The notes below the pieces were generated by a model, which had not been told where the DNA came from, did no database searches, and saw nothing but the letters and a program-made list of their open reading frames with translations. DNA of 28,548 bases from Dehalococcoidales bacterium (GTDB lineage: Bacteria > Chloroflexota > Dehalococcoidia > Dehalococcoidales > ARS1013): assembly GCA_030641585.1 (NCBI GenBank), contig DAOWHE010000066.1, positions 1-28,548 on the forward strand, read 5' to 3'. Positions 777 through 23,885 of this stretch are shown in pieces. A program made the translations under genes and the position numbers. Within the stretch, counting starts at the first letter, position 1. The number at the start of each line of letters is the position of its first letter.

Positions 777-889
777 TTATTACACTCCACCGGGTTCAAT
801 TGATGAGAGTATGCTAAAGGCCACGGTCTCGGCTAAGAAGAAGGAGAAAGCCAGTAAGTAGCCTATCAAGACTCTCGAGGAGATTGACA

Positions 890-1420: not shown

Positions 1421-1463
1421 GCAGGCAATAAACATATTGAAGCCAGTGAAAGGATAGAGTAGG

Positions 1464-2648: not shown

Positions 2649-2669
2649 GTTTAATTAAGGAAGAAACCA

Positions 2670-3515: not shown

Positions 3516-3532
3516 AGAAGGGGGAAAAACCA

Positions 3533-4135
3533 ATGGCTTACACGGCAAAAGACTTTAGTAATCTCATTGATATGGAGGGTTTTAGTAAGACCCTGCTCAA
3601 GAACCACTTTACTCTCTACCAGGGCTATGTGACCAATACCAATAAGCTTATGGACTTGCTGACCGCCATGTTGAAAGAGGGCAAGGTGGGCACTCCACAA
3701 TATGCCGAACTAAAGCGACGGATGGGCTTTGAGTTTAATGGCATGCGCTTGCACGAGTATTACTTCGGGAACCTTGGTGGCACAAGGGCTCTGGACAGAG
3801 CGAGTAGGCTGGGCAAAAGGCTGGCTGAGGACTTTGATAGCTATGAGGATTGGGAGAGGGATTTTAAGGGTACGGCAATGATGCGCGGCATTGGCTGGGC
3901 CATTCTGTATCAGGACAATGTAACGGGAAACCTCTTCAACCAGTGGATTAATGAGCATGAGACCGGCCATCCGGCTGGTTGTATCCCCGTTTTAGTAATG
4001 GATGTCTTTGAACATGCCTTTATTACTGATTATGGGTTAAAGCGAGCTGACTATATAGAAGCCTTCTTCAAGAACATAAACTGGGGAGTGGTTGAGGGGC
4101 GGCTGAAACAGGCGGCATACGCCAGCAGTTCTTGA
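3533..4135 (+). CDS. sod: Fe/Mn superoxide dismutase
   Basis: Metal-ligand motifs NHFTLYQGYV, LHEYYF and MDVFEHAF, plus GIGWAIL; 200 aa. Confidence 0.9.
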   Translation: MAYTAKDFSNLIDMEGFSKTLLKNHFTLYQGYVTNTNKLMDLLTAMLKEGKVGTPQYAELKRRMGFEFNGMRLHEYYFGNLGGTRALDRASRLGKRLAEDFDSYEDWERDFKGTAMMRGIGWAILYQDNVTGNLFNQWINEHETGHPAGCIPVLVMDVFEHAFITDYGLKRADYIEAFFKNINWGVVEGRLKQAAYASSS

Positions 4136-4698: not shown

Positions 4699-5340
4699 TT
4701 GGCGTTGAATAGAAAAGTAGAAGCCATCGAGGTTATCAGGAGGCTTGAGCAAGAGTATCCCGGTGCCAAGATAGCACTTGAATTTTCAGACCCGCTGGAG
4801 CTTCTGGTAGCCACTGTCCTTTCCGCTCAGTGCACCGATGAAATGGTCAATAAGGTAACCGCTAGCCTGTTTAGGAAGTATCGCACTGCTGATGACTATG
4901 CTAATGCTGACCTTGAGCAATTTGAGCGGGAGATAAGGTCAACCGGTTTTTATCGCAGTAAAGCAAGGAATATTATTGGTGCTGCCAGGTTAATGGTAGC
5001 CGATTTTGGTGCTCAGGTGCCAGCGACGATGGCTGAACTTATCACCCTGCCCGGGGTTGCCCGCAAGACAGCCAATATAGTGCTTTACAACGGCTATGGC
5101 GTTACTCACGGTATAGCTGTGGACACTCATGTTAGGCGCCTTTCAAGGCGCCTTGGCTTAAGCCAAAACAATGACCCGAATAAGATTGAGCAGGACCTGA
5201 TGAAGCAAGTCCCAAAAGCTAAGTGGGGTCACTTCTCCTATCTTCTGATTGAGCACGGTCGTGCTGTTTGTCAGGCAAGGAAGCCCAAGTGTGATGTTTG
5301 TCTTCTCAGCGATATCTGCCCCTCGGCTTTTAAGGTGTAG
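4699..5340 (+). CDS. nth: Endonuclease III (HhH-GPD glycosylase/AP lyase with a [4Fe-4S] cluster)
   Basis: LLVATVLSAQCTD, HhH motif LPGVARKTAN, VDTH, and the C-terminal C-x6-C-x2-C-x5-C motif (CQARKPKCDVCLLSDIC). Confidence 0.95.
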   Translation: MALNRKVEAIEVIRRLEQEYPGAKIALEFSDPLELLVATVLSAQCTDEMVNKVTASLFRKYRTADDYANADLEQFEREIRSTGFYRSKARNIIGAARLMVADFGAQVPATMAELITLPGVARKTANIVLYNGYGVTHGIAVDTHVRRLSRRLGLSQNNDPNKIEQDLMKQVPKAKWGHFSYLLIEHGRAVCQARKPKCDVCLLSDICPSAFKV

Positions 5341-5623: not shown

Positions 5624-7084
5624 CTAAAAGCCGAACATGCTGGTTGCCATTTCAGCCAGCTTTATTATAAAGTCAGGAGCGATGCCCAAAAGTAAGATGC
5701 CGAGGCAGGAAATAGCCAGAGCCAGCCTTAGAGTAAAAGAGGAAGGCACCTTCCCCTCACCAACTGGCTCATTAAGCCACATTACTTTTACTACTCTGAG
5801 ATAGTAGTAGGCTGATATGGTGCTATTTAGGACAGCAATAATCACCAGCCATAATAGGCCGTTAGAAACGGCGTCGCTGAAGATGTAGAACTTGGCTATA
5901 AAGCCGGCGGTTGGTGGCAGACCGATAAGGGAGATGAGGCCCAGACTCAGAGCTAAGGCTAGTATCGGCGCCTGCTTTCCCATGCCGGCATAGTCCGAAA
6001 TTTGGTCACTACCGAGCTTACCCGAAACAGCGATGACAGTGATAAAGGCGGCTAGGTCGGCCAGGGTAAAGGCAACTACATAGAAGAGGATACTGCTCTG
6101 GGCTAGAGTATCCGTAGTTGGTGATAGCCCGATGGCGGCCAGTCCTATCATTATATAACCGGCGTGGGCGATGCTGGAGTAAGCCAGCATACGCTTAATG
6201 TTAGCCTGCTGAATGGCGACCACATTGCCCAGTGTCATACCGATGGCACCAAGTATGGCAAATATCATCCCCCAGTCCAGGCTCAGCGGCTCTGGCAGTG
6301 CGAAAGCAGAGTAGAAAACCCGCAGGATGACGGCAAAGCCAGCGACTTTACTGCCTACCGAGAGATAGAGGGTTATTGGTGTTGGTGCCCCCTCATAAAC
6401 ATCGGGCACCCACATGTGAAAGGGTACGGCGGCAATCTTAAAGCCGAAGCCGGCTATCATCAGTACTAAGCCCAGTATAAGCCCCGGGTTAGCTAGAAGG
6501 CTTTGTGTGCTCATCCCTTTGATGACTTGAGCAATTTCTGGGAGTTGGGTGGTGCCGGTAAAACCAAAGGTGAGCGCCATGCCAAAGAGCAATACTGCCG
6601 AGGCAACCCCACCCAGCAAAACGAATTTTAAAGAGGCTTCGGTTGATTTTTTGTCTTTTAGGAAACCGACCAGAACATAGAAGGAGATTGCAGCCAGCTC
6701 CAGAGCTACGAAGATGGAGATTAGGTCAGTGGCCGCCGTCATCAGCATCATGCCTAGCGTGGCCAGAAGCACCAGGGCATGGTATTCTCCATGAAAGCGG
6801 GCAAACTTGGAGACATAATCTACCGAGACCAGGATAACGAGGACGGCAATACCTAAAAACAACAGCTTGAAGAAAAGGGCATAGTTATCCACCGCCAGCA
6901 TATTGTTGAAGATAGCCTGAGGAGCCGTGCCCCACATGGTTATGGCAAAGCCAGCGGCTATGGCTAAACCAGCTATGCTGACCACTGTCAGCAGTCCCTT
7001 GCGCTCAGTAAAAAGGTCAAGCATGATTACCGCTATAGCGGTAATCAGAAGGCTTAGCTCTGGCAGAAGTAGCTCAAGATTCAA
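5624..7084 (-). CDS. nuoN: NADH-quinone oxidoreductase subunit N
   Basis: Antiporter-like membrane protein with ALELAAISFY, EASLKF, FKIAAVPFHMWVPDVYEG and KRMLAYSSIAHAGY; last gene of the operon. Confidence 0.93.
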   Translation of the reverse strand: MNLELLLPELSLLITAIAVIMLDLFTERKGLLTVVSIAGLAIAAGFAITMWGTAPQAIFNNMLAVDNYALFFKLLFLGIAVLVILVSVDYVSKFARFHGEYHALVLLATLGMMLMTAATDLISIFVALELAAISFYVLVGFLKDKKSTEASLKFVLLGGVASAVLLFGMALTFGFTGTTQLPEIAQVIKGMSTQSLLANPGLILGLVLMIAGFGFKIAAVPFHMWVPDVYEGAPTPITLYLSVGSKVAGFAVILRVFYSAFALPEPLSLDWGMIFAILGAIGMTLGNVVAIQQANIKRMLAYSSIAHAGYIMIGLAAIGLSPTTDTLAQSSILFYVVAFTLADLAAFITVIAVSGKLGSDQISDYAGMGKQAPILALALSLGLISLIGLPPTAGFIAKFYIFSDAVSNGLLWLVIIAVLNSTISAYYYLRVVKVMWLNEPVGEGKVPSSFTLRLALAISCLGILLLGIAPDFIIKLAEMATSMFGF

Positions 7085-7136
7085 AACCTGCTCCTTTACC
7101 TCTCATGTTACTACTAAGTTAAAACTATCAAGTCCC

Positions 7137-8630
7137 TTATCCGCCAAATAAGGCGGCTATGGGAGCGATACCGGTTCTAAAGACATCGGTCAAAATCATC
7201 GGGTAAAGACCAACCAAAAAGATAAGAGCAATAAAGATAGCGCAATATATCTTCTCTAGGTTGTCGGCGTCCCTAACCTGGTTAAATTTCTCCAGCACTG
7301 GACCGAAGAATACCCGCTGCAAGAGCCACAGTGTGTAGGCTGCCGCCAGTAGAATACCCAGCAGGGAGATGATGGTGTAGATTTGAACACCACTAACGAC
7401 GTTGCTGGCAAAAGCACCCAGAAAGATGGTAACCTCGGCGATAAAGCCGCTGGTGGTGGGCACGCCCATAGCACCCAGTCCAGCGATGGTAAATATGACG
7501 GCTATAGCTGGCATCTGCCGGGCCAGGCCACCTAGCTTGGAGATGTCGCGCTCCCCGGTATTGTGCATAACTATGCCGGCGACGGCAAACAGGAGTCCGG
7601 TAATGATGCCGTGGCTGAACATCTGCAAACCGGCGCCAACCAGGCTTGCCTCGCCCAAAGCAAAAATGCCGAGCAGGACAAAGCCCATATGACTGATGCT
7701 GCTATAGGCGATTAGCCTCTTAATGTCGGTCTGCTTTAGTGTTACTGCTGCTCCATAGACCACGTTGACTGCTGCTAGACCAAGGAGCAGAGGAGCATAA
7801 TCCTGGGCGGCCTGAGGGAAGATACCGATGGAAATGCGAATCATGGCGTAGCCACCCATCTTAATCAGTGTCCCGGCCAGTATCACGCTGACTGCGGTTG
7901 GGGCATCGGTATGAGCATCAGGCAGCCAGGTATGCAAGGGAATGATAGGCAATTTTACGGCAAAGCCAGCTAGTAGCAGGAAGAAGATAGCCGCCAGTGG
8001 GATGCTGGTAACTAGCGGGGCGAGGTCGGTCTGGGCTATCTCTACCATATTGAGGGAGCCGGTAGTGAAGTAGAGACTCAGGATGCCAGCCAGCATCAGG
8101 GCACCACCAAACAGGGTATAGAGAACATACTTCATGGCTGAGTATTCTTTTCTGCCGGCTCCCCAGATGGAGATTAGGAAGTACATGGGGATAATCTCTA
8201 TCTCCCAGAAGATAAAGAACAGTAGCAGGTCAAGAGAAGTAAATACGCCGAGGATGCTTGTCTCAAGCAGCAGCAGCCAGGCAAAATACTCCCGCACTCT
8301 TAAGTTCATCTTCCAGGAAAGAAGGACTGCCAGAAAACCAAGCAGGCTCATTAGCACTACCAGCGGTAGGCTTAGGCCATCGACACCCAGATGGTAGTTG
8401 GCGTTAATCAGCGGAATCCATGATGCGAATTCCTCAAACTGCATTTGCCCAGCCATTGCCGCTGACCTGTCGAAAGCGGCGAATAGCCCCAGGGAGATGG
8501 CCAGTGGGATAAGAGTAAAAAGGGCGGCGATGTACTTGATTTGCCTTGAGGAGAGACGTGGCACCAGAGCAATAATAATTGCTCCTGCTACTGGCAGAAA
8601 GATAATGGTTGAAAGATAGTTAAAGCTCAA
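7137..8630 (-). CDS. nuoM: NADH-quinone oxidoreductase subunit M
   Basis: LGVDGLS, FFIFWEIEIIPMY, FAVKLPIIPLHTWLPDAH, LIKMGGY and KRLIAYSSISHMG. Confidence 0.94.
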   Translation of the reverse strand: MSFNYLSTIIFLPVAGAIIIALVPRLSSRQIKYIAALFTLIPLAISLGLFAAFDRSAAMAGQMQFEEFASWIPLINANYHLGVDGLSLPLVVLMSLLGFLAVLLSWKMNLRVREYFAWLLLLETSILGVFTSLDLLLFFIFWEIEIIPMYFLISIWGAGRKEYSAMKYVLYTLFGGALMLAGILSLYFTTGSLNMVEIAQTDLAPLVTSIPLAAIFFLLLAGFAVKLPIIPLHTWLPDAHTDAPTAVSVILAGTLIKMGGYAMIRISIGIFPQAAQDYAPLLLGLAAVNVVYGAAVTLKQTDIKRLIAYSSISHMGFVLLGIFALGEASLVGAGLQMFSHGIITGLLFAVAGIVMHNTGERDISKLGGLARQMPAIAVIFTIAGLGAMGVPTTSGFIAEVTIFLGAFASNVVSGVQIYTIISLLGILLAAAYTLWLLQRVFFGPVLEKFNQVRDADNLEKIYCAIFIALIFLVGLYPMILTDVFRTGIAPIAALFGG

Positions 8631-8654
8631 TTATCCCACCTCCTTTGTCAACGC

Positions 8655-10646
8655 TTAGCTAAAGAAAATAAGGGCGAGACTGATGGCCAGTATGCCTAAG
8701 ATAATAAACATACCGTAAAGCTGGAGCTGCCCGGTCTGTGCTATCCTTAGAACTCTGCCGGTGGCTACTGTAGTGTCAGCTACTCCATTTACTGCGCCAT
8801 CAATTCCCCTGTTGTCAAATGATTTCAGGCCAGAAAAGAACCTGCGGACAACCAAGTTCTCAATAAAAAAGGCATTTATTCCCCTATCAATAAACCGGCT
8901 GTCAAATAGCTTGATGCCGGCAAAAAGGCCTTTTAGTAATACTATCCTGGCGATGATATTTTCATAAAGTTCATCAAACCAGTACTTATTGGAAAATACA
9001 ACATAAAATGGTTCAAACAGCCGGCCAATTCGCTCGGCTGACAGCCATCTGGCGCTGTAGATAGCATAGGCCAGAAGAATGCCGGCGCCAGCTAAAATTA
9101 AGGATACCCAGGGCAGCGGATGGGCTAAGATACCAAAGAAGCCCTGGAAGACGTGTGTTTCACTGGGCTCCAGAAATCGGCTGAACCCACCGGTGACATT
9201 AAACCAGCCGGAGCCAACCGCCAGAACAGCCAGAACCACCATTGGCGTAATCATTACCGACGGTGATTCATGTGGTCTTGGGCTGTGGTTTGCTGGACTG
9301 CCACCCCGGTACTGACCGCCAAAGGTAAGAAAGACTACGCGGAACATGTAGAATGCGGTCATAAAGACGGTGACCATGGCTAGGTAAAACAAGATGGGTT
9401 GGTTATTAATTGAGCTGGCCAGTATTTCATCCTTACTCCAGAACCCGGCAAGTGGCCAGATGCCAGCAATACTCAGCGAAGCAATAAGAAAGGTAGCATA
9501 AGTCCAAGGCATCACCTTGCGCAGTCCGCCCATCTGGCGCATATCAAATGTGCCGGTGGCGTGACTGACACTACCGGCTCCAAGAAATAGTAGTGCCTTA
9601 AAGAAGGCATGGTTAAACAGGTGGAAGATACCAATGGCTATGCCACCAACCCCCAGCCCCAGCATCATATAGCCAAGCTGGCTGATGGTAGAATAGGCCA
9701 GGACCCGCTTGATATCGGTCATCACCAGGCCCATAGTGGCGGCAAAAATGGCGGTTAAGCCTCCGATGATGGCTACAGTAAGCAAGGCGACTTCAGAGTG
9801 CTCAAAGAGAGGAAACATTCGGGCAACCAGAAAGACGCCGGCGGCGACCATGGTCGCCGCATGAATCAGAGCGCTGACCGGGGTTGGACCTTCCATGGCA
9901 TCTGGCAGCCATACATGGAGTGGAAATTGGGCTGATTTGCCTATCGCTCCGAGAAAGATACCTATGGCTGCCCAGGTGAGGACTGTGCCGGTTAGAACTC
10001 CGGCTAAGGCCAAGCTGTGGAGCTGAGCAATATCAAGGGTGCCCGTCTGGGATAAAAGGAGCAGTATTGCTCCAAGGAAGCCAAAGTCACCGATGCGGGT
10101 GACAATAAAAGCCTTTTTGGCTGCATTGGCTGCCGCCGGACGATGGAACCAGAAGCCAATAAGGAGATAGGAGCATAAGCCCACCATCTCCCAGAAGACA
10201 AACATTAAGAGCAGATTATCAACCATAACCAGCCCCAGCATTGAGGCGGTAAATAGTGATAAAAGGGCATAGTAGCGGTGGTAACCAGGGTCACCCTTCA
10301 TATAGCCTTGTGAGTAGAGCTGCACCATAAGGCTGACCAAGGTGACGACGATAAGCATCACCGCTGTCAGTGAGTCTATCATTAGACCGAGATGAATGTT
10401 AATGGCACTATCAATAACAAGCCAGTTAAAGTCGGGTATCACTAGCTCGTGGCCCGGTGCTGAGAGGAGGCTTATAAGTACCCAAGTTGACAGGATAAAG
10501 GAGCCGAAGATGGCGCTAATGGAGATATAACCGCTGAGCCTGGGATTATTCAAGAATGGTCTTACAAATAAAGCGATTACCGCAAATGAAAGTATCGGCA
10601 GTAAGAAGATAAGCCAGACCAGTTCATTTGGTATTACAGTTTCCAT
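8655..10646 (-). CDS. nuoL: NADH-quinone oxidoreductase subunit L, with a duplicated segment in the lateral helix
   Basis: YSQGYMKGD, FVFWEMVGLCSYLLIGFW, GKSAQFPLHVWLPDAMEGPTPVSALIHAATMV, HAFFKALLFL, and C-terminal FDELY...QTG. Confidence 0.95.
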   Translation of the reverse strand: METVIPNELVWLIFLLPILSFAVIALFVRPFLNNPRLSGYISISAIFGSFILSTWVLISLLSAPGHELVIPDFNWLVIDSAINIHLGLMIDSLTAVMLIVVTLVSLMVQLYSQGYMKGDPGYHRYYALLSLFTASMLGLVMVDNLLLMFVFWEMVGLCSYLLIGFWFHRPAAANAAKKAFIVTRIGDFGFLGAILLLLSQTGTLDIAQLHSLALAGVLTGTVLTWAAIGIFLGAIGKSAQFPLHVWLPDAMEGPTPVSALIHAATMVAAGVFLVARMFPLFEHSEVALLTVAIIGGLTAIFAATMGLVMTDIKRVLAYSTISQLGYMMLGLGVGGIAIGIFHLFNHAFFKALLFLGAGSVSHATGTFDMRQMGGLRKVMPWTYATFLIASLSIAGIWPLAGFWSKDEILASSINNQPILFYLAMVTVFMTAFYMFRVVFLTFGGQYRGGSPANHSPRPHESPSVMITPMVVLAVLAVGSGWFNVTGGFSRFLEPSETHVFQGFFGILAHPLPWVSLILAGAGILLAYAIYSARWLSAERIGRLFEPFYVVFSNKYWFDELYENIIARIVLLKGLFAGIKLFDSRFIDRGINAFFIENLVVRRFFSGLKSFDNRGIDGAVNGVADTTVATGRVLRIAQTGQLQLYGMFIILGILAISLALIFFS

Positions 10647-10676
10647 AAGCCCTTTTAGTCTATTCTCCCTTTACTA

Positions 10677-10988
10677 TTACCATTTCATCAAATCTATTTT
10701 GGTGGTATCTATGGTCTCACGGCTGCGGTAGATAGCCATTATTATAGCCAAGCCCACGGTAGCTTCAGCGGCGGCTACCACGATAGAGAAGATGGTGAAA
10801 ACCTGCCCGGTCAAAAGAGCTGGCACAATATAGCGTGAGAAGGCGACCAGAGCGATGTTGGCTGCATTGAGCATAAGCTCAATGGACATCAGGATGACTA
10901 CGGCGCTTCTTTTGGTCAGCGCTCCGTATAAGCCGATAGAAAATAGTGCTGCTGATAGGACTAGATAATGCTCCAGACCTAAAGACAT
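10677..10988 (-). CDS. nuoK: NADH-quinone oxidoreductase subunit K
   Basis: LFSIGLYG, MSIELMLNAAN and AAAEATVGLAI; three TM helices, 103 aa. Confidence 0.95.
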   Translation of the reverse strand: MSLGLEHYLVLSAALFSIGLYGALTKRSAVVILMSIELMLNAANIALVAFSRYIVPALLTGQVFTIFSIVVAAAEATVGLAIIMAIYRSRETIDTTKIDLMKW

Positions 10989-11010
10989 ATAGTTCCCTCT
11001 CTAAAGACTT

Positions 11011-11499
11011 TCATTTCTCTCTCACTATAGTAATGGCTCCTATAATGGTAGCCAGTAGTAGAATGGCAGCAATCTCTACCGTTAAGATAAAGCCGTCTTC
11101 ACCAAAAAGTTTACTAGCTAAGGCGACCGTTGTAGCCTCGGCAGGGGGTAAGCTGACTAGTGACCACGATGTTTTGAGCATGGCAAAGGTGACTGTCCCG
11201 AAAAACAATACGGCACTGATAAGAACCGGAACCACTAGCTTATTAGAAAGGCTGCCTCGCTCGACCTCTCTGGTTAGCATGATAGCCAGGATAATCAGCA
11301 CTGAGATGGCACCGACGTAAATGAGAATCTGAACCGCTGCCAGGAAGTCGGCACTGAGGATGATAAAGATGCCAGCCACCGCCAGGAAGCATAAAATCAG
11401 CGACAGCGCCGCCCGGAAAACATTGCGCAGCGTAACTACAGCTAGGGCAGCCGCTATAGCCACTATGGCTAGCACCCAAAAGGCAATTTCTAATGCCAT
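11011..11499 (-). CDS. nuoJ: NADH-quinone oxidoreductase subunit J
   Basis: ADFLAAVQILIYVGAISVLII and EIAAILLLATIIGA. Start taken as ATG 11499 (MALEIAFW), 5 nt after the nuoI stop, rather than the track's 11565. Confidence 0.92.
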   Translation of the reverse strand: MALEIAFWVLAIVAIAAALAVVTLRNVFRAALSLILCFLAVAGIFIILSADFLAAVQILIYVGAISVLIILAIMLTREVERGSLSNKLVVPVLISAVLFFGTVTFAMLKTSWSLVSLPPAEATTVALASKLFGEDGFILTVEIAAILLLATIIGAITIVREK

Positions 11500-11503
11500 T
11501 CTT

Positions 11504-13399
11504 CTACCTTGTAAAGTACTCCCTTCGGTCAATAAGTAAAGTCTGTTTGGGTAAGGTCTCCTCAACTTCGGGGTGGGCGTAACCGCTAGCTTGCCTCTTG
11601 TCCGGAAGCAGAAGCTCTTCTTTGCTTAGGAGTTGTTCATGGAGCCGATACGAAGCCCGCTCATAGCTATAACCCATAAACAGGGCATCAAAGGGACAGG
11701 CCTCAACGCATAAGCCACAATAGATGCATTGCCCACCACGGAGTTGGTACTTCTCTACTTCATAGGTAATATCACAGCGAAGGCACCGCTGCGTCTCTTC
11801 GCTTGCCGACTGTTTGCTCCAGCCAAGCTCTGTCTCTGAAAAGCTGCTAAGCCGCTTTTCATGTGGGATGGCGTCTATCTTGGGGCGCCATCCTTCTATA
11901 GGTCCGCCAAGGCGGTCTAAAATTTGCTCAGGCGGCGTTAGTGTTTCATCAATAATGCCGCTGCCGCCCAGGTATTTGTCTATGGAAATGGCCGCCTGTC
12001 TGCCGGCGGCAATGGCCTCAATAACTGTTGCCGGTCCGCTTATGGCATCACCGCCGGCAAATATCGCCTTATTGTTGGTGACCAGCGTATCGGGGGCAAC
12101 TTGGATCTTATCACCTTGTCCGGTAGCTAAATTAAACGAGGCTGGTACCAGTGGACGCTGACCGATAGCGGATATAATGTTGTCCAGGCTTATGGTAAAC
12201 TCACTGCCCGCAATTGGCTCGGGCCGACGCCGACCGCTTAAATCTTCGGCACCTAGCTTCATGCGAAGACACTCTAGCTCCAGTTCCCTATCCGAACTAG
12301 TTATTTGTGACGGGGCTGTCAGAAAGAGGAACTTTACTCCCTCCTCAGTTGCCGCCTCAATTTCTTCTGAACTAGCTGGCATTTCTGCCCGAGTCCGCCG
12401 GTAGACAATGGTTACCTCTTTAGCCCCAAGGCGGAGTGCGGTTCTTGCCGAGTCCATGGCAGTATTACCGCCACCGATAACGGCCACCCTATTTCCGAGT
12501 TCTATCTTTTTACCCAGATTGACCTCTCTCAAGAAGTCGGTACCACCCAATACCCTGGGATCATCCTCGCCAGCAACGCCTATTTCAGTAGTCTGATGGG
12601 CTCCAGTGGCTACGAAAACAGCGCTAAATCCCTGCCCAAGGAGGCTTTGGGGTGAATCCACCTTGGTATTTATCTCTATCTTGACGCCAACATTTTCTAT
12701 CTCTTTAATCTCGGCTTTAAGTATATCCCTGGGCAGCCGATAGCTAGGAATACCAACCCGCATCATACCTCCTGGCTCAGGTAAGGCCTCAAAGACGGTT
12801 ACCAAATGACCGCTAAGCTTAGTCAGGTAATAGGCGGCGGTGAGTCCTGCTGGTCCCGAGCCAATAATGGCCACCCGCTTACCGCTGGGTGAAGCAATCT
12901 TTGACCTCTTCCTCCATAGGCCGCTATCATTATCAACGGCAAACCGCTTGAGCATGCGGATAGCGATTGGCTCATCTATCTGCCCCCGGCTACAGGCAGC
13001 CTCGCAGGGATGGGCACAGATGTAGGCGCAGACCGAGGGGAAGGGGATCTTCTCTCGGTTTACGGCTACTGCCTCGGACGGCTTACCCGCGGTAATTAAT
13101 CTAATATAACGGGGTACATCCACATGAGCCGGGCAGGACTGGCTACACGGTGCCGGAACCAATCCCTTAGTCCCCTTCTCAGAAGTCATAATATCAATAC
13201 AGCCATGAGGGCAGCTCTGGGCACAGGTATAACAACCGATACACTTTTCCTGGGACCAGGCAAGCACATTACCCCGAATTCGGCGAGAAACAGTCAGTTT
13301 CTCTTCTGGGTATTGCGTGGTAATCGGCTTTCTAAACAGGTGCTTTAGGGTTAAAGCCATTCCCTTGGCTATGCCATTACCGTAGTGCTCAAACCTCAA
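11504..13399 (-). CDS. nuoI: NuoI fusion: complex I 2x[4Fe-4S] subunit containing an inserted GltD/NfnB-like FAD- and NAD(P)H-binding oxidoreductase module
   Basis: It sits in the nuoI position between nuoH and nuoJ. NuoI N-terminus: GMALTLKHLF..ITTQYPEE..RIRG, then CIGCYTCAQSCP (C53-C63). Insert: APCSQSCP, CAYICAHPCEAAC, GSGPAG, GGGNTAMDSAR, YRR, AGGDA, RCLRC. NuoI resumes with CIYCGLCVEACP (C558-C568). Confidence 0.92.
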   Translation of the reverse strand: MRFEHYGNGIAKGMALTLKHLFRKPITTQYPEEKLTVSRRIRGNVLAWSQEKCIGCYTCAQSCPHGCIDIMTSEKGTKGLVPAPCSQSCPAHVDVPRYIRLITAGKPSEAVAVNREKIPFPSVCAYICAHPCEAACSRGQIDEPIAIRMLKRFAVDNDSGLWRKRSKIASPSGKRVAIIGSGPAGLTAAYYLTKLSGHLVTVFEALPEPGGMMRVGIPSYRLPRDILKAEIKEIENVGVKIEINTKVDSPQSLLGQGFSAVFVATGAHQTTEIGVAGEDDPRVLGGTDFLREVNLGKKIELGNRVAVIGGGNTAMDSARTALRLGAKEVTIVYRRTRAEMPASSEEIEAATEEGVKFLFLTAPSQITSSDRELELECLRMKLGAEDLSGRRRPEPIAGSEFTISLDNIISAIGQRPLVPASFNLATGQGDKIQVAPDTLVTNNKAIFAGGDAISGPATVIEAIAAGRQAAISIDKYLGGSGIIDETLTPPEQILDRLGGPIEGWRPKIDAIPHEKRLSSFSETELGWSKQSASEETQRCLRCDITYEVEKYQLRGGQCIYCGLCVEACPFDALFMGYSYERASYRLHEQLLSKEELLLPDKRQASGYAHPEVEETLPKQTLLIDRREYFTR

Positions 13400-14513
13400 T
13401 TCTTTCCCCTCCTAGCCTGAAAAACCTTGACCATGAAAGTACTAAAACCACCATCGCTACTAAATTCAAAAACACTATTAGCCAGGGAGAAGCCTCGGGC
13501 CAGAATACGACCTGGAGGCTGGTGATAAGCAAATTTATTAGTGCCAGAGGCAGCAGGAACTTCCAGGCAAAGGCCATTACCTGGTCTATCCTCATGCGTG
13601 GTATCGTGCTCCGTATCCACACGATGAACAAGAAAACGGCGAATACTTTAATCAAAAACCAGATGATAGGCGGCAGTAGAGGCCCCTGCCAGCCGCCTAG
13701 GAAAAGGGTGGTCATTAGCGCTGACATAGCTATGACCTCGGCGTATTCGGCGAGGAAAAGTGTGGCGAACTTCATCCCTGAGTATTCAATATGATAACCG
13801 GCTACAAGCTCTGAATCAGCTTCCACCAGGTCAAATGGAGTACGATTACTCTCAGCCAGAGAGCCGATGAAGAAGATGAGGAACCCCAGTGGCTGAAGTA
13901 AAATAAAGGGGATATCACGTTGTGCCCCGACAATTTCAGTCAGTGACAGAGAACCGGTAATTAAGACGACACCAACAATAGAGAGCACTATTGGAATTTC
14001 ATAGCTGATTAGCATGGCTACATCTCGCATTGCCCCGATAAGGGAGTACTTATTATTGGAAGCCCAGCCGGCCATAAATACCCCCACTGCTGCCACTGAG
14101 CTGATGGCCACCACATAGAGGATGCCAATATTGAGGTCAGCCAGCAGCGCCCCACTCTGAAATGGAATCACGGCAAAAATCATCAGCACCGGAACAAAGG
14201 CAACCAGCGGTGCCAGCCAAAAAACCAGTTTATCCCCTTTAGCTGGGATCATGTCTTCTTTGGTTAGTAGCTTGAGGACATCGGCTATTGGCTGGAGAAG
14301 ACCGAAGGGTCCAACGCGGTTGGGGCCAAGGCGAACCTGGAAACGACCTAAAGCTCGTCGCTCAAGCCAGATAAATATAAGGGCGGTATTTAAGACAAAA
14401 GCCAGTATAATGACAGTAAAGACCACCCAGTGAAGCCAGAAGTTTCCCGGCCAGTCAGGGGGAAGCACCGCAAGTTGGCTAAATGAGTTAGGATTGGTAC
14501 TGAGTATAGCCAC
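13389..14513 (-). CDS. nuoH: NADH-quinone oxidoreductase subunit H
   Basis: WLERR, RLGPNRVGPFGLLQPIADVLKLLTKE, SNNKYSLIG, ESNRTPFDLVEADSEL and R(M)RIDQ. Confidence 0.96.
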   Translation of the reverse strand: MAILSTNPNSFSQLAVLPPDWPGNFWLHWVVFTVIILAFVLNTALIFIWLERRALGRFQVRLGPNRVGPFGLLQPIADVLKLLTKEDMIPAKGDKLVFWLAPLVAFVPVLMIFAVIPFQSGALLADLNIGILYVVAISSVAAVGVFMAGWASNNKYSLIGAMRDVAMLISYEIPIVLSIVGVVLITGSLSLTEIVGAQRDIPFILLQPLGFLIFFIGSLAESNRTPFDLVEADSELVAGYHIEYSGMKFATLFLAEYAEVIAMSALMTTLFLGGWQGPLLPPIIWFLIKVFAVFLFIVWIRSTIPRMRIDQVMAFAWKFLLPLALINLLITSLQVVFWPEASPWLIVFLNLVAMVVLVLSWSRFFRLGGERIEV

Positions 14514-15616
14514 TATCTATCCACCTCGCCTAGGCAAATATCAATGCTACCAAAGACGATTATGGCATCAGCCAGTTTCCAGCCAATGAGCATCTGCCGA
14601 AGAGCCGTCAGGTTAATTAAGGACGGTGCCCTAACATGGAAGCGATAGGGTTTATCTGAATTGTCTGACACCAGATAAAAGCCGAGCTCGCCCTTGGGAG
14701 CTTCAATATGGGCGTAGACTTCACCAGCTGGCGGCCGCAACTTGAGTGGCACCTCAGTTAGCACTTTGCCCTTGGGCAATTGCTCCATGGCCTGTCTTAG
14801 GATGCGTACACACTGCCTCATTTCCTCAATTCTTACGCGGTAGCGGTCATAGGCATCGCTGATACTGCCGGTCGGAATGTCAAACTCAAAGCGGTCATAT
14901 ACAGAGTAGGGGTCTGCCTTGCGAATATCCCACTTAACCCCGCTGGCACGGAGCACTGGGCCGCTGGCCGAGATATTTATGGCTAAATCCTTGGGTAGAA
15001 TGCCAACACCCTTAGTCCGAGCCAAAAGTATCTCATTCTCAGCCAGAAGCTGGTCATACTCATCAATAAAGCCGGGCATTCTGTCAACGAACTTAGCCAG
15101 GGCAGGTAAGAACTCATCAGGAATGTCGTGGCTAACACCGCCAAAACGCATGTAGTTATAGGTAAGCCGCTGGCCACAGACCATCTCAAACAGGTCGAGA
15201 ATCTTCTCCCTTTCCCGAAACATGTACAGTAAAGGAGTCCCAAAGGCGCCTAAATCCTGGACAAAGGTACCCACCGCTATTATGTGGCTGACGATGCGCT
15301 GCAGTTCCACCATAATGACCCGCAGGTACTCCGCTCGCTCGGGCACATTTATTTCAGCTAGCTTCTCTACTGCCATAACATAAGGCAAATTATTGCTCAT
15401 GGAGGCAAGGTAGTCTAGCCTATCGGTAAAGGGGATATTCTGCTTGTAGGTACACCCCTCAGCCAGTTTTTCAATGCCACGGTGGAGGTAGCCAATGACT
15501 GGCTCAATATCAACAATGACCTCACCATCAAGGGTGGCTCTTAAGCGAAACACTCCGTGTGTGCTGGGATGAAGCGGACCTAGATTGAGAACAAAGTGCT
15601 CGGTTTTAAGTGTCAT
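14513..15616 (-). CDS. nuoD: NADH-quinone oxidoreductase subunit D
   Basis: LNLGPLHPSTHG, GYLHRGIEK, DRLDY, EAPKGELG, and C-terminal GEVDR. There are no NiFe-binding CxxC pairs. Confidence 0.96.
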   Translation of the reverse strand: MTLKTEHFVLNLGPLHPSTHGVFRLRATLDGEVIVDIEPVIGYLHRGIEKLAEGCTYKQNIPFTDRLDYLASMSNNLPYVMAVEKLAEINVPERAEYLRVIMVELQRIVSHIIAVGTFVQDLGAFGTPLLYMFREREKILDLFEMVCGQRLTYNYMRFGGVSHDIPDEFLPALAKFVDRMPGFIDEYDQLLAENEILLARTKGVGILPKDLAINISASGPVLRASGVKWDIRKADPYSVYDRFEFDIPTGSISDAYDRYRVRIEEMRQCVRILRQAMEQLPKGKVLTEVPLKLRPPAGEVYAHIEAPKGELGFYLVSDNSDKPYRFHVRAPSLINLTALRQMLIGWKLADAIIVFGSIDICLGEVDR

Positions 15617-16055
15617 CAGAGTAATCCTTACGCAGTGGATGCCCTTGGAAACCGTCCCAGAGAAAGATGCGCTTCATATTTGGGTGAGCGTCAAATCTGA
15701 TGCCCATGAGGTCGTAAATCTCGCGCTCCTGATAATCGGCGCCCTGCCATAAGCTAAATAATGATGGGACTACCGGCTCATCTCGCTCATAGCACCGAGT
15801 TTTTAGCACCAGGCTGTGGTTATGCTCTAGTGACACCAGATGATAGACCAGCTCAAAGTAGTTGCCGTAATCAACGGCGGTAATACTGGAAAGATAATCA
15901 AAGTCAAATCCCGGCGTGGCCTTAAGATAGCGGGCTATCCGTAATAAAAACTCACTCTTGACGATTAGACTGGCGGGACTGGACTCGACAATACTTGTCG
16001 GAAATTGCGCCTCTAATTTACCAGCCAGCTCTTTTCCAGGAAGGGCTACTGTCAT
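15606..16055 (-). CDS. nuoC: NADH-quinone oxidoreductase subunit C
   Basis: FDYLSSITAVD, FELVYHL, WQGADYQEREIYDLMGIRF, and GHPLRKD. Confidence 0.95.
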   Translation of the reverse strand: MTVALPGKELAGKLEAQFPTSIVESSPASLIVKSEFLLRIARYLKATPGFDFDYLSSITAVDYGNYFELVYHLVSLEHNHSLVLKTRCYERDEPVVPSLFSLWQGADYQEREIYDLMGIRFDAHPNMKRIFLWDGFQGHPLRKDYSDDT

Positions 16056-16058
16056 CGG

Positions 16059-16655
16059 TTACTTGCCTTCCTGCATCGAGCTTCTTTTGGCTATCTTCTT
16101 ATGCAGCGTCATTATCCCATGAAGCAGGGTTTCCGGGCGCGGTGGACAGCCGGGTATATAGACGTCAACCGGGACTATGCGGTTATAGCCGGGCACAACC
16201 GAGTAAGAACCTTTAAAAAGTCCGCCGCTGATGCCGCATGCCCCCATAGCTATTACCCACTTCGGCTCTGCCATCTGGTCATAGATTCGCTTTACCTGGG
16301 GCGCCATCTTCCAGGTAAGCGTGCCGGCGGTAATCATCAGGTCAGCCTGGCGCGGTGAGGCACGCACGACTTCCATACCAAAGCGGGAAAAATCCCAACG
16401 AGAGGCGGCGATGGCAATAAATTCAAAGGCACAGCAGGCTGGGAAACAGACCACTGGCCAGAGTGCAGACCGCCGTGCCCAGTTCAAGACGGCATCTACG
16501 GTGGTGAGTAATATATTTTGGCTCAGTTCTTCATCCAGCCACTCATCCGGGTCAGGGATAGCCTCCCCGCTTGTTGCTTTTAGTGCCTCTATTACCCCAC
16601 CCTCATATCTATCAAGTTCGGTATCAGAGTAACTGTAGCTTTTGTCTATTTCCAT
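16059..16655 (-). CDS. nuoB: NADH-quinone oxidoreductase subunit B (N2 cluster)
   Basis: [31 protein letters not shown], and [13 protein letters not shown]. Start taken as ATG 16655, overlapping the nuoA stop region; the track's TTG 16676 is an alternative. Confidence 0.95.
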
Positions 16656-17017
16656 TCGAGAACCTTCTTCCGCCAAGCATAGATATAGCCGACAACAATA
16701 ATGGCAATAAAGATAAGTGCCGCAATAAGACCAAAGACCCCCAGCTGACGGAGGTCAACTGCCCAGGGATAGAGAAAGGCAACCATAACATCAAGGGCAA
16801 TGAGAATGAGGGCATAAAAGTAATAGCGGAAGTTAAATTGAACCCATGATCTACCTATGGTCTCCATACCACATTCAAAGGTGGAGGCCTTAACAGGGTT
16901 GGGCTTTTGGGGCACAATCTTTAATAGTTTAAGAACAACAGGAATGAGAATTAGTGAGCAGGCAAAGAAGATAGCAACTACTAGCAATAGGGCGATATAG
17001 CCATAGTTTGTTAGCAA
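16646..17017 (-). CDS. nuoA: NADH-quinone oxidoreductase subunit A
   Basis: [30 protein letters not shown], and [10 protein letters not shown]; TTG start with an AGGAG RBS. Confidence 0.95.
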
Positions 17018-17161: not shown

Positions 17162-18334
17162 GTGAAACTGGTAGTTGCTGGTTTCGGGCAGTGTGGCGGC
17201 AGGATTGCCGAAGAATTTGCCCGACTGAATAAAAGGGCACGTAGACACCGTGGCATTGAAATAGTTATTGACGCCTTTGCCGTTAATACAGATTCGGCTG
17301 ACCTGGCCGGGCTACGCGCTATAAAGACCGACTACCAGCACAGAATACTTATTGGCGCTGGCAGCACCCACGGTCATGGTGTGGCTAAGATAAGTGAGGC
17401 TGGTGCCGAGATAGCCAAAGAGGACGCTGATAAGGTTATTGATGCCATGAGAACCACTAAACAGTTCTTTGAAGCCGATGCTTTCCTATTGGTAGCTGGG
17501 ACTGCTGGCGGCACCGGTTCAGGGGTAACACCGGTCATGGCCCAGGTGCTCAAGCAGCGCTTTGATAAACCGGTTTATGCCCTGGCAGTCCTTCCTTTTG
17601 AGCATGAAGAGGAGACGGAGGAAAGGGCACTCTATAACACGGCGGTATTTCTCAAATCTACCTATTCAGTGGCTGATGCTGTCATCCTTGTTGACAATCA
17701 GAGATATGTCAGGAAGGACTTCTCACTGAAAAACAACCTAGACAAAATCAATGCCTTGATAGTTGAACCTTTCTATAATCTGCTTTGCGCAGGTGAAGAG
17801 AAAAAGGTGAAGCACATCGGTGCCAGAATGCTTGATACCGGAGATATAGTAAACACCCTAGCTGGTTGGACGGCGATTGGCTATGGTAAAGCGCCGTTAC
17901 CATTTAGGACGCTACTTTCAAGGTGGACAGGTAACTTCATGCAGAAGAGTGCCCAGACCCATCTGGGCGTCCAGGCAATGGATGAGGCTATTAGTGAGCT
18001 ATCAATCGGGTGTAGCTCCCAAGACGCTTGCCGTGCCCTGTATCTGGTTTCGGCAGCGGCCAGGATGATAAATGTCGACTTGGTCAAGGAACTTGGCAAT
18101 CATCTTAAGAATTTGGTGCCAAAGGCTGTTATCAGGAACGGGGACTACCCCAGGGGGAAGGGTGTGCTTGATATAACCTTAGTCCTGTCGGAGCTCAGTG
18201 ATGTTGAAAAGGTGAGAAACTACTATAGCAAGTCAGTCGACTTGGCTAAGGAAATCAGCAAAAGACAAAAGGTGAAAGCGAGCAAGGTTGAGCTGACGGA
18301 AGAGGCAGGCAAGGATATTCCGACACTGCTCTAG
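17162..18334 (+). CDS. Tubulin/FtsZ-superfamily GTPase, CetZ-like rather than canonical FtsZ
   Basis: T1 GFGQCGGRI, T2 AVNTD, T3 GHGVAK, signature AGTAGGTGSG, T6 DNQ. The T7 region reads MLDTGDIVNTL and lacks the FtsZ GxxNxD motif. GTG start with a GGAGGTGA RBS. Confidence 0.85.
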   Translation: MKLVVAGFGQCGGRIAEEFARLNKRARRHRGIEIVIDAFAVNTDSADLAGLRAIKTDYQHRILIGAGSTHGHGVAKISEAGAEIAKEDADKVIDAMRTTKQFFEADAFLLVAGTAGGTGSGVTPVMAQVLKQRFDKPVYALAVLPFEHEEETEERALYNTAVFLKSTYSVADAVILVDNQRYVRKDFSLKNNLDKINALIVEPFYNLLCAGEEKKVKHIGARMLDTGDIVNTLAGWTAIGYGKAPLPFRTLLSRWTGNFMQKSAQTHLGVQAMDEAISELSIGCSSQDACRALYLVSAAARMINVDLVKELGNHLKNLVPKAVIRNGDYPRGKGVLDITLVLSELSDVEKVRNYYSKSVDLAKEISKRQKVKASKVELTEEAGKDIPTLL

Positions 18335-18409: not shown

Positions 18410-19675
18410 ATGAAAAAGTTTGCTGTTGGTTGTGCTGCGGCGATAGGTGTGTTTGCAGTGGTGATAGTAGGCATCGCCCTTGCCACCACAATCTTTGATT
18501 TTAATGGTACAACTGATACAACTCCCACTGATACAACTCCCACCCAGACTACCCCGGCTGAAACAGGGCCTGTGGAGACTACTGAGCCGGCTACTCCGAT
18601 TGAAGTGGAGTTTGTAGACGCGCAGAGCCGAGGCCTGATTGAATACAGTGCTTATGGCCGAGCTTCACTTGAGCAGTTTCAACTGAACATCACATCAGAG
18701 AGTGACGACACTCTGGAAATTGTTATCTTGCCTGGGACGATATTTGATCCGCAGGCGGCCTACTATATACAAAGCTTGGTAGTTATAACAGAGAAACTGG
18801 TATTGTTGGACCCGCATGAGGCAGTCGAGTCGCTCAACATTGATGCCGGTACTATCAACATGCAGTTAGATACACCCGGTGAGGATGATAGTCTGGTGTT
18901 GAGCATGACCCCTGCCAGCGGGGACCTGATGCTGTTACTAAATCTACCCGATTTTCAGGACTTTGATTTTCGCATCCAGCAGTTTGCCATTTGGACACTC
19001 ACGGATAATCCTGGGCTTAACGAATACCCTGATACTGGCCCCAGTGACGAGGAGATAGATAATATCCGCTCTCTCTTTGAAATAGCAGGAATCCCGACTG
19101 AAGAATATCGGGTGCTACAGCCGCCGGTTTACGTAGAGCTAATAGAGGCACAGAGCATGGGGCTTATTGGGGTTAGTGCCCGTGGTACAGGCTCCATTAA
19201 CCGCATCCAGATGAGCCTGACATCGAACAGCGATGATGTTCTAGAGGTTGCCATCTTGCCTGGGACGATATTTATCTCATCGGCAGCCGGTGTTCAGAGC
19301 ATGGTAGTTGTAGCAGAGAAACTGGTATTGCTGGACCCATATGAGGCAGTCGAGTCGGTCAACATTGACGCCGCCTGTGCCAATATGGAGCTGGATGCGC
19401 CTGAAGAGAGTAACAGCCTGGTGTTGAGCACGACCCCGGCCAGCGGGGATCTAGTGCTATTACTAAATCTACCCGAGTTTCACGATGAGACTCTTCGCGT
19501 CCAGCAGTTTGCTGTCTGGACTATTACTGATAATCCTGGGCGTGGTGGATATATGGGTATTGCTACCGGCTTTGCTATATTTGGAACCGGCCCCCGTGAT
19601 GAAGAGATAGAGAGAATACGGGTCCTCTTTGGAAAGGCAGGGATCTCAACTGATAAATATCAGGCACTGCTCTAG
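18410..19675 (+). CDS. Membrane-anchored or secreted acidic protein: N-terminal TM or signal, Thr/Pro linker, two tandem ~175-185 aa homologous domains (possible thioester domains)
   Basis: Hydrophobic N-terminus MKKFAVGCAAAIGVFAVVIVGIALA and linker TTDTTPTDTTPTQTTP. Duplicated blocks ILPGTIF, EKLVLLDP.EAVES.NIDA, PASGDL.LLLNLP and QQFA.W..TDNPG; DNA offset 525-528 nt. Confidence 0.8.
   Translation: MKKFAVGCAAAIGVFAVVIVGIALATTIFDFNGTTDTTPTDTTPTQTTPAETGPVETTEPATPIEVEFVDAQSRGLIEYSAYGRASLEQFQLNITSESDDTLEIVILPGTIFDPQAAYYIQSLVVITEKLVLLDPHEAVESLNIDAGTINMQLDTPGEDDSLVLSMTPASGDLMLLLNLPDFQDFDFRIQQFAIWTLTDNPGLNEYPDTGPSDEEIDNIRSLFEIAGIPTEEYRVLQPPVYVELIEAQSMGLIGVSARGTGSINRIQMSLTSNSDDVLEVAILPGTIFISSAAGVQSMVVVAEKLVLLDPYEAVESVNIDAACANMELDAPEESNSLVLSTTPASGDLVLLLNLPEFHDETLRVQQFAVWTITDNPGRGGYMGIATGFAIFGTGPRDEEIERIRVLFGKAGISTDKYQALL
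18512..18541 (+). repeat. Perfect 15-nt tandem repeat (2 copies) encoding TDTTP
   Basis: ACTGATACAACTCCC at 18512-18526 and 18527-18541, followed by the degenerate copy ACCCAGACTACCCC. Confidence 0.85.
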
Positions 19676-19941: not shown

Positions 19942-19970
19942 GTGCCTCCTTTTGGAGGCACTTTTGTTTT
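19942..19970 (+). terminator. Intrinsic terminator (riboswitch expression platform)
   Basis: GTGCCTCC-TTTT-GGAGGCAC followed by TTTTGTTTT. Confidence 0.85.
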
Positions 19971-20001
19971 ATCTGGCATTTACCACATGGCGAGGTGTTC
20001 T

Positions 20002-20805
20002 ATGAGGTCTTTAACTGGTATGCATCTTAGTATGAGTCCCATGAAGCTTGTGTTTATTTTATTGGGCTCATTGATTGTGTTGTTCATTTTTGTACCATTG
20101 TTCAAGATGATGTTCTCATCCAGCCCGGCTAGTTTACTTGATACGCTTGGAGAAGGGGAAGTAGCCGCCTCCATCTTGCTCACCCTTTATGCCGCCCTTC
20201 TGGCTACTGTTATTGGCTTCTTGCTGGGCATTCCTCTGGCTTATCTTCTGGCGCGCCATGAATTTCCCGGTAAGCGGCTCGTTGAAGGGCTCATTGATTT
20301 GCCGATAGTGGTGCCTCACAGCGCTGTGGGTATAGCCCTTCTCTTCGTCTTTGGCCAACGCTTCTTTTTTGGCAAGGTATTTCACGCCATGGGCATTGAT
20401 TTCGTTGGTGAGGTTGCCGGTATTGTCATCGCCATGCTTTTTGTCAGCGTTCCTTTTCTGATAAATGCAGCCAAAGAGGGCTTCAAGAAGGTGGATGTCA
20501 GACTGGAAAAGGTGGCTCGTTCCCTCGGCGCCTCTCCGTGGCAGTCCTTTCGCCGGGTAACCCTGCCACTGGCTCGGGGGAGCATTCTATCCGGTACAGT
20601 GATGATGTGGGCCAGGGGTATAAGTGAATTCGGTGCCGTCCTTATTCTGACCTATAATCCCATGATAGCCCCAATTCTGGTCTACGAAAGGTTTGAGACA
20701 TTCGGTCTGGATTATGCTCTGCCGGTAGCGGCAGTGCTTGTCCTGGTATGCCTGGTCATATTTGTCACCTTAAGAGCTATTGCCCATCGCTGGGAGGCAA
20801 AATGA
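20002..20805 (+). CDS. wtpB: Tungstate/molybdate ABC transporter permease (WtpB/ModB family)
   Basis: LIDLPIVVPHSAVGIALL, the EAA-like loop LEKVARSLGASPWQSFRRVTLPL, and WARGISEFGA. The start is moved downstream of the terminator (ATG 20002, GAGG RBS); later ATGs are possible. Confidence 0.85.
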   Translation: MRSLTGMHLSMSPMKLVFILLGSLIVLFIFVPLFKMMFSSSPASLLDTLGEGEVAASILLTLYAALLATVIGFLLGIPLAYLLARHEFPGKRLVEGLIDLPIVVPHSAVGIALLFVFGQRFFFGKVFHAMGIDFVGEVAGIVIAMLFVSVPFLINAAKEGFKKVDVRLEKVARSLGASPWQSFRRVTLPLARGSILSGTVMMWARGISEFGAVLILTYNPMIAPILVYERFETFGLDYALPVAAVLVLVCLVIFVTLRAIAHRWEAK

Positions 20806-21848: not shown

Positions 21849-21854
21849 GAGGGG

Positions 21855-22823: not shown

Positions 22824-22865
22824 GTAGCTTGACCATAATGTCTATGGTAGAATAAGGAGAGAAAA

Positions 22866-23849: not shown

Positions 23850-23885
23850 GGTGTTCGTTTGGAATGAGAGGAGAGGGGGGTAGAG

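Follow-up and report, generated by a model that had tools for sequence, protein, structure and literature searches.

A candidate NADPH-linked complex I in Dehalococcoidales, with a circularly permuted NfnB-type module nested in NuoI

The nuo operon considered here lies on a 28,548-nucleotide stretch of DNA from an uncultured Dehalococcoidales bacterium of marine sediment (contig DAOWHE010000066.1 of assembly GCA_030641585.1; the whole stretch is called the window below), and its nuoI gene (11504-13399, minus strand) encodes a NuoI of 631 residues within which a flavoprotein module is nested. This protein is, by orthology and operon place, the genuine NuoI of an 11-subunit complex I, and the module, 467 residues long, replaces the turn at the tip of a NuoI β-hairpin between the two ferredoxin motifs (an arrangement called type A below). 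The model built on these data proposes that the complex is probably a reversible complex I linked to reduced nicotinamide adenine dinucleotide phosphate (NADPH), with the module as its built-in point of electron entry or exit. We also lean, if only slightly, towards the view that such proteins form a widespread and overlooked class of complex I, in which a permuted NfnB-type module has been plugged into NuoI several times independently.

The gene is read in a single unbroken frame from a TTG start. Pfam places one ferredoxin half-motif at either end of the protein (residues 36-68 and 547-584) with Fer4_20 (83-157, 65.9 bits) and Pyr_redox_2 (175-466, 110.6 bits) between them, both above cut-off. 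Matches to the NCBIfam NuoI models fall into two blocks (about 10-75 and 543-609) and score 62-92 bits against cut-offs of 113-457 because the insert splits the protein, so that none matches it as a whole, and GltD-family NCBIfam models cover residues 82-574. All features of the gene lie on the minus strand. The NuoI N-terminal part (residues 1-78; 13166-13399) contains the membrane-facing helix signature, ferredoxin motif 1 (CIGCYTCAQSCP, residues 53-64, with C53, C56, C59 and C63-P64; nt 13208-13243) and the first hairpin strand (68-78). The inserted module (residues 79-545; 11765-13165), a permuted NfnB/GltD-type unit predicted to hold NADPH, flavin adenine dinucleotide (FAD) and two [4Fe-4S] clusters, opens with an iron-sulfur (Fe-S) subdomain (83-157; 12929-13153; Pfam Fer4_20) in which C85, C89, C128, C132, C136 and Lys151 are found and which includes the motifs APCSQSCP (83-90), CAYICAHPCEAAC (124-136) and LKRF (150-153, holding Lys151). 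The FAD and NAD(P)H Rossmann domains, delimited by Pyr_redox_2 and conservation (175-478; 11966-12877), carry GSGPAG (180-185) as the FAD motif, GGGNTA (309-314) as the second Rossmann motif, YRR after the second Rossmann strand (333-335), AGGDA (448-452, with GGD at 449-451) and AIAAGRQAA (462-470), and the module closes with a permuted segment (512-543; 11771-11866) that ends in RCLRC (C539 and C542). The NuoI C-terminal part (546-631; 11504-11764) then resumes with the second hairpin strand (544-554), ferredoxin motif 2 (CIYCGLCVEACP, residues 558-569, with C558, C561, C564 and C568-P569; nt 11693-11728) and the C-terminal tail, the junctions of the insert lying at about nt 13165 and 11764. 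An AlphaFold2 model built from 116 sequences has a mean predicted local distance difference test score of 89.7 and a predicted template modelling score of 0.87, and is weak only at residues 1-9, 23-41 and the C-terminal end. All eight Cys of the CxxCxxCxxxCP motifs, which serve clusters N6a and N6b, are kept in 71 of 71 fused homologues; motif 1 ends in CxxxC-H or CxxxC-S instead of CP in four type A proteins.

The module itself is a complete one. Residues 78-544 align without large gaps to StnC (8oh5_C 97-567, E = 3e-109) and to the large subunit of NfnABC (9bov_A 97-568), and the model superposes on both structures at 44-47% identity (residues 79-545 on 9bov_A, Z 47.5, root-mean-square deviation 2.0 Å; residues 80-545 on 8oh5_C, Z 46.6, 1.7 Å). 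NfnB itself reaches only residues 84-479 in sequence alignment and superposes on residues 81-479 alone (Z 37-39). The segment at 512-543 (...EETQRCLRCD) matches just three sequences in the PDB, at E values of 0.017-0.06, and all three matches are NfnB-type N-termini (4ylf_B 13-43; 5jca_L and 5vj7_A 18-49); the CxxC segment that is N-terminal in the canonical GltD/NfnB order thus follows the FAD domain here. Because NfnB covers residues 81-479 and its N-terminus corresponds to 512-543, the module is a circularly permuted NfnB of the form found in Stn and NfnABC, and among solved structures the non-bifurcating NADPH module of StnC/NfnABC comes closest to it. A comparison of 71 fused with 45 other-architecture modules found C85, C89, C128, C132, C136, C539 and R538 to be invariant and C542 almost invariant; all 71 fused homologues have Lys151, a position occupied by Glu in 7 of the 45 others. 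C124, which is Leu in 7 of the 71, is probably not a ligand since it is not conserved. The seven Cys and Lys151 would accordingly define, at the level of sequence, the ligand set for two [4Fe-4S] clusters. In the alignment Lys151 falls on StnC Lys170, a residue that cryo-electron microscopy places on the FAD-proximal cluster of a module that binds FAD and NADPH, does not bifurcate and feeds a linear cluster chain (PMC10482914). YRR is kept in 70 of 71 fused proteins, and the seven Cys, Lys151, the FAD motif and YRR are each kept in 70-71 of 71, which shows that a redox-active unit is under purifying selection. In its nucleotide-binding stretch the module is nearly identical to StnC, which was solved with NADPH in place; this likeness, together with GSGPAG, GGGNTA and YRR, suggests that the module binds FAD and NADPH.

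These results bear on an earlier note on this DNA, made from the letters and translations, which had described a 631-residue NuoI in one frame with an insert at about residues 80-545 between its ferredoxin motifs. The open reading frame (ORF), Pfam and NCBIfam agree with that description, and every motif that the note quoted was recovered in its place. Its assignment of the insert to the GltD/NfnB family, with FAD and NADP(H)-type motifs, is supported by Pfam, alignment and superposition, and its placing of Lys151 at the position of the non-Cys cluster ligand stands by the alignment with StnC. Its account of the Fe-S ligands of the insert held in part: the motifs quoted are present, but C539 and C542 of RCLRC had been missed and C124 had been counted in excess. 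The circular permutation, too, had escaped it.

Both junctions, at which the earlier note had considered a chimeric assembly, are real. In a public cold-seep run, one contig of 1890 nt spans 11699-13588, and hence both junctions, with 7 mismatches, and each junction is separately bridged by contigs of an independent study. The sequence is present in cold-seep and marine-sediment metagenomes from at least 11 studies, and the 5' end of the gene is covered by an exact 178-nt contig from a metatranscriptome library. A contig in one run (X1) skips 93 nt (31 codons), at 11581-11675, in the C-terminal tail of the protein; its shorter side is 29 nt, and it may stem from a related strain or another organism. 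Homologues of 614-648 residues at 60-90% identity form more than 100 clusters in NCBI, JGI, ENA and Logan assemblies, and are named just 'FAD-dependent oxidoreductase', from Dehalococcoidales or Dehalococcoidia; the depositor-named records that carry the fusion come from cold seeps, termite guts, rumen, peat and groundwater. Within the same GTDB order, NuoH was found in 99 of 151 sampled species genomes, about 35 of which have a fused NuoI beside NuoH, and these carriers span at least 13 families. Among them are G240, a genome in one contig, and G014, a genome in two contigs that is 100% complete; the operons of both are syntenic with that of the window. In a sample of 200 genomes of the class, full-length fusions were confined to this order. 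Two complete genomes of the order (G079 and G098, 1.4-1.7 Mb) encode a protein of about 632 residues, 41-42% identical to the fused NuoI over residues 23-579 (L092 9990-11639 and L093 9490-11091), with no nuo genes within 10 kb. Because these proteins lie outside nuo operons and both genomes have their own nuo operons with plain NuoI, they were not counted as fusions; they look like soluble proteins with the module nested in a ferredoxin.

The mode of attachment can be read from sister genomes that carry the same 11-gene operon, its other subunits 58-83% identical, with a plain NuoI of 161-204 residues. Plain NuoI corresponds to residues 1 to about 73-80 of the fused protein joined directly to about 543-546 through 625, and the insert is missing as one clean block from the plain NuoI of close relatives. 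The N-terminal part of the fused protein is 60-73% identical to plain NuoI in sister operons and the C-terminal part 49-59% identical in four of them; syntenic operons with plain NuoI occur in G275, G238, G220 and G256, and in a pair from one GTDB genus, G272 (fused) and G244 (plain), the two NuoI flanks together are 84% identical. The two strands of the native NuoI hairpin are residues 68-78 and 544-554 in the model. A NuoH tree was built from 76 operons, of which 34 are fused type A, 41 plain and 1 type B (defined below), and on it the distribution of the fused and plain states requires at least seven changes. On a tree of 70 modules the type A modules are scattered: a main clade of 23 (support 99) includes that of the window, a group from G240, G268 and G291 joins modules of unrelated proteins (support 99), and two others join modules of proteins of about 1020 residues. 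An approximately unbiased test, run after the tree was seen, rejected a single clade of type A modules (p = 0.007). That type A is not one clade points to repeated insertion at the same hairpin, or to exchange of the module by recombination between paralogues.

In a second architecture, type B, the NuoI N-terminal helix comes first and is followed by the module and then by both ferredoxin motifs. It is found among 50%-identity representatives (P0143, P0251 and P0259) and in nuoABCDH-I-JKLMN operons in which nuoI is the fused gene (including L021 9001-10899 and L022 9001-10962), and the family comprises at least 120 clusters from Coriobacteriia, other Actinobacteria (Actinomycetota), Firmicutes (Bacillota) and Anaerolineae. 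Some of its members are single NuoH-NuoI polypeptides of about 1005 residues (P0341 and P0386). The L022 operon also has extra antiporter-like genes. In type B the CxxC of the module stands four residues before the first Cys of motif 1, and because the ligands are so close, the distal cluster of the module and a NuoI cluster must be neighbours. The proposed class would thus comprise two places of insertion: the hairpin tip in Dehalococcoidales, and the position before motif 1 in Coriobacteriia, other Actinomycetota, Bacillota and Anaerolineae, sometimes with NuoH joined on.

The remaining subunits are those of a bona fide complex I. The operon (5624-17017, minus strand) reads nuoA-B-C-D-H-I-J-K-L-M-N, with nuoA at 16646-17017, nuoB at 16059-16676, nuoC at 15606-16055, nuoD at 14513-15616, nuoH at 13389-14513, nuoJ at 11011-11565 (longest ORF), nuoK at 10677-10988, nuoL at 8655-10646, nuoM at 7137-8630 and nuoN at 5624-7084, all on the minus strand; Pfam identifies the ten neighbours of nuoI, and G014 and G240 share this gene order. 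With its start at 11565, the longest nuoJ ORF has 62 nt in common with the end of nuoI (11504-11565), and the true start is probably further downstream because relatives align to NuoJ only from residue 15-23 or so. The translation of nuoB has the N2 cluster ligands (CC tandem, GACG and GCPP). That of nuoD has complex-I-type residues (the His of LHPSTHGV and the Tyr of LDYL) which, by way of the known Nqo4 His38 and Tyr87, we take to be those of the quinone site. NuoD has no NiFe Cys motifs and ends in DICLGEVDR, and the marks of Mbx/Mbs-type complexes (Mrp antiporters and vestigial NiFe Cys) are absent. Pfam found no nuoE, nuoF or nuoG in the operon, including between nuoD and nuoH, in agreement with the earlier note, so that the operon does not encode a 14-subunit NADH:quinone oxidoreductase; the window's own genome (742 kb, 68% complete) gave no match to Complex1_51K (PF01512, NuoF-type). 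PF01512 proteins of fusion-carrying relatives lie away from nuo or, in G240, in an rnf-like operon. This apparent rnf operon (L019 14624-19789) is divergent from the fused-NuoI nuo operon and has a 442-residue Complex1_51K ORF read as RnfC, followed by ORFs of 396, 177, 209 and 192 residues and preceded by one of 331 residues, an identification made from ORF sizes and a single domain. Since the sister operons with plain NuoI likewise lack nuoEFG, the complex was already headless when the module was added. The earlier claim that it replaces NuoEFG is therefore not upheld, an input role having been added and NuoEFG not displaced, and the co-occurrence of the fusion with missing nuoEFG, which had been put forward as a test, does not discriminate, both because plain-NuoI operons lack these genes too and because PF01512 also matches RnfC, HydB and formate dehydrogenase-type proteins.

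The model proposes that the module holds FAD, NADPH and two [4Fe-4S] clusters, a proximal one on three Cys and Lys151 and a distal one on four Cys. NADPH would deliver a hydride to FAD, from which single electrons would pass through the proximal and then the distal cluster. By homology with the ferredoxin-like motif of NfnB, C85, C539 and C542, which come from both ends of the module, would belong to the distal cluster, and as the permutation brings both ends to the point of attachment to NuoI, this cluster probably sits there. Electrons could then enter the two NuoI clusters and reach N2 in NuoB and the NuoD/NuoH acceptor site, coupled to ion pumping by NuoL, NuoM and NuoN. The chain is expected to be reversible, so that reduction of NADP+ driven by the proton motive force (pmf) may also be possible. 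The transfer into NuoI, its direction and the acceptor are thus parts of the proposal, and the retention of the N2 ligands of NuoB and of the His/Tyr site of NuoD is as the proposal needs.

Several observations weigh against this model. In type A, C542 and C558 are 16 residues apart along an 11-residue strand, and the gap between the distal cluster of the module and the NuoI cluster could exceed 14 Å. The module is accessory, because relatives with plain NuoI evidently work and the state has changed so often on the NuoH tree. The preference for NADPH over NADH is suggested by motif rules and homology. In five fusion-carrying genomes there was no MqnA, MenD fell below cut-off and no menaquinone head-group pathway was found, and the MenA-like prenyltransferase seen in fusion-carrying genomes also scored below cut-off. 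No cytochrome bd was found in the same five genomes. NrfD-type membrane subunits do occur in three carriers (G014, G240 and G214), and the NrfD-anchored enzymes of these relatives might share a membrane carrier with the complex.

The wiring may be as proposed with the physiological direction reversed, such that the ion gradient drives electrons from a membrane carrier or quinol to NADP+ and supplies NADPH for biosynthesis. The module family is reversible in Stn and Nfn, NADPH is needed by small-genome sediment anaerobes, anaerobe-type oxidative-stress genes are present in the window, and the NrfD-type subunits just mentioned could supply the reduced carrier. However, nothing in the sequence sets the direction, reverse flow would cost pmf in organisms thought to be energy-starved, and no quinone biosynthesis pathway was recognised, and reversal as the normal mode seems to us rather unlikely. 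An improbable second alternative is a ferredoxin:NADP+ oxidoreductase, in which reduced ferredoxin would dock on NuoI, as it does in other 11-subunit complexes, the module would be the exit to NADP+ and the acceptor site of NuoD would be little used or not used at all. In NfnB the two [4Fe-4S] clusters form the ferredoxin branch. For plain 11-subunit complexes, ferredoxin is the presumed donor where one is named at all (PMC11238625), and the Thermotoga-type operon with a gltD-related subunit has been read as a ferredoxin:NAD(P)+ oxidoreductase (Degli Esposti, 2015; PMC4758237). However, NuoD and NuoB retain the full complex-I-type quinone site and N2 ligands and not Mbx-type residues, energy coupling in this enzyme family requires chemistry at that very site, and G240 already has the rnf-like operon beside nuo for ferredoxin-linked coupling.

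Very little probability attaches to flavin-based bifurcation or confurcation, whereby the FAD of the module would send some of the electrons of NADPH into the NuoI chain and the others to a second partner, for instance ferredoxin. The module shares its fold with the bifurcating NfnB, and the Arg that is R201 in NfnB and R239 in StnC is also conserved here (R221). However, the operon has no NfnA-like or HydBC-like partner, and StnC, the closest solved relative, has the same Arg and Lys ligand and was shown to be non-bifurcating (PMC10482914); the earlier note had likewise seen no adjacent NfnA and withheld support from bifurcation. A similarly small probability attaches to the view that the module is tethered to NuoI and electronically uncoupled, and serves as a redox sensor, as an element of assembly or as a soluble-type oxidoreductase that is co-localised with the complex. 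The long hairpin stalk of type A could hold the module away from the core, and the module is gained and lost among close relatives, but NuoI has acquired the same redox module repeatedly, at two sites and also within triple fusions that include NuoH, the type B ligands of the distal and motif 1 clusters are almost adjacent, and all redox residues are strictly conserved. A chimeric assembly or a frameshift joining nuoI to a gltD-like gene, for which only the fragmented, 68%-complete metagenome bin of the window could speak, is refuted by the independent contigs across both junctions and by the same architecture in single-contig G240, two-contig G014 and more than 100 protein clusters, and its probability is negligible.

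The operon is flanked by genes of other kinds. Divergent from nuoA, a plus-strand gene (17162-18334) encodes a 390-residue protein of the tubulin/FtsZ family whose C-terminal domain is that of CetZ (PF00091 and PF21011). CetZ proteins are considered archaeal, and to meet one in a Dehalococcoidales bacterium is unusual. A 391-residue ORF stands at the same relative place in G014 (L020 14648-15823), a match by place and size only, and the CetZ-like gene is adjoined by an ORF of 421 residues (18410-19675, plus strand) with no Pfam match at E ≤ 1e-4. Downstream of nuoN, a plus-strand cluster (884-4135) encodes rubrerythrin, a flavodiiron-type protein (ODP β-lactamase fold and flavodoxin), an Fe/Mn superoxide dismutase and a 281-residue ferritin-like protein with a second ferritin-like or COQ7-like stretch; an endonuclease III gene (4699-5340) comes after this oxidative-stress cluster. 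The stretch at 19942-26587 begins with the genes of a molybdate ABC transporter (modB/C/A-like) and continues with moaA, moaC, a MOSC-domain gene, moeA and a mog-like gene, from which it is concluded that the organism makes molybdenum cofactor.

What feeds electrons to complexes I that lack NuoEFG is a long-standing question, and the donor of the 11-subunit complex was still unknown according to a 2024 paper (PMC11238625). Here a candidate donor module is written into one of the subunits, which makes the question directly testable. If the model is correct, it answers that question for the carrier lineages and provides strict anaerobes with an ion-pumping NADPH dehydrogenase or a pmf-driven NADP+ reductase. 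Complex I would then be tied to the NADP(H) and not the NAD(H) pool, which would affect how redox and energy are budgeted in the Dehalococcoidales that abound in the subsurface, in guts and in peat. Circular permutation places the two ends of the redox module side by side, which allows the module to be set into a loop of another protein. Because databases name these proteins just 'FAD-dependent oxidoreductase', metabolic reconstructions miss both NuoI and the link to NADPH. The earlier note had taken the architecture to be a candidate new one, and no publication describing a NuoI-GltD fusion was found in the full-text literature, although most subscription journals lay outside that search and absence is not proven; nor is NuoI among the GltD-like proteins listed in a 2021 review.

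Comparison with known systems places the fused NuoI between several of them. StnC of the Sporomusa ovata StnABC complex (8oh5) and the large subunit of NfnABC, or Nfn-Bfu (9bov and 9n5u), share the same permuted module end to end, with Lys at the proximal-cluster position, the YRR region and an RCLxC closing segment, and there as here the module sits within a host Fe-S protein, whose chain of clusters it feeds or, in NuoI, is predicted to feed. Their host, however, is a soluble NuoG/HydA-like protein with an adjacent HydBC-type bifurcating pair of NuoE/F-like subunits, whereas the host here is the NuoI of a membrane complex I, and such a pair is not found beside it; moreover, the ligand of the next cluster follows the module by two residues in StnC and by 16 in the window. 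Domains I-III of the NfnB/GltD/SudA/dihydropyrimidine dehydrogenase (DPD) family are alike in fold, in FAD and NADPH motifs and in two low-potential [4Fe-4S] clusters, which are predicted here. They are unlike in that the segment of about residues 13-43 with RCLQC opens NfnB and its counterpart closes the present module, in that NfnB and DPD have Glu or Gln where NuoI has Lys, and in that the operon has no NfnA or GltB partner. The closest published precedent comes from the Mbx-like operons of Thermotoga and certain proteobacteria, in which a gltD-related flavoprotein substitutes for NuoI (Degli Esposti, 2015; PMC4758237). Compared by description only, the Thermotoga operons are alike in having a GltD-related NAD(P)H flavoprotein at the position of NuoI, and unlike in being of the Mbx/Mrp type with vestigial NiFe Cys in NuoD, whereas the window has a bona fide nuo operon; when genome contigs were scanned with the type B alignment, most of the matches were other module-bearing proteins, and none was from a Thermotoga record. 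Canonical NuoI (Nqo9, TYKY) shares the N-terminal helix signature, the two CxxCxxCxxxCP motifs, the C-terminal tail and the position between nuoH and nuoJ, but has about 160-200 residues against 631, the hairpin turn of the latter carrying the 467-residue flavoprotein. Finally, the NuoEFG N-module of 14-subunit complex I, FpoF of Fpo and the NdhS/V/O ferredoxin site of photosynthetic NDH-1 are, like the module described here, alternative electron-input devices on a conserved 11-subunit core; unlike them, this module would be based on FAD and not on flavin mononucleotide, belongs to another fold family, is probably specific for NADPH and is covalently part of NuoI, where theirs are separate subunits.

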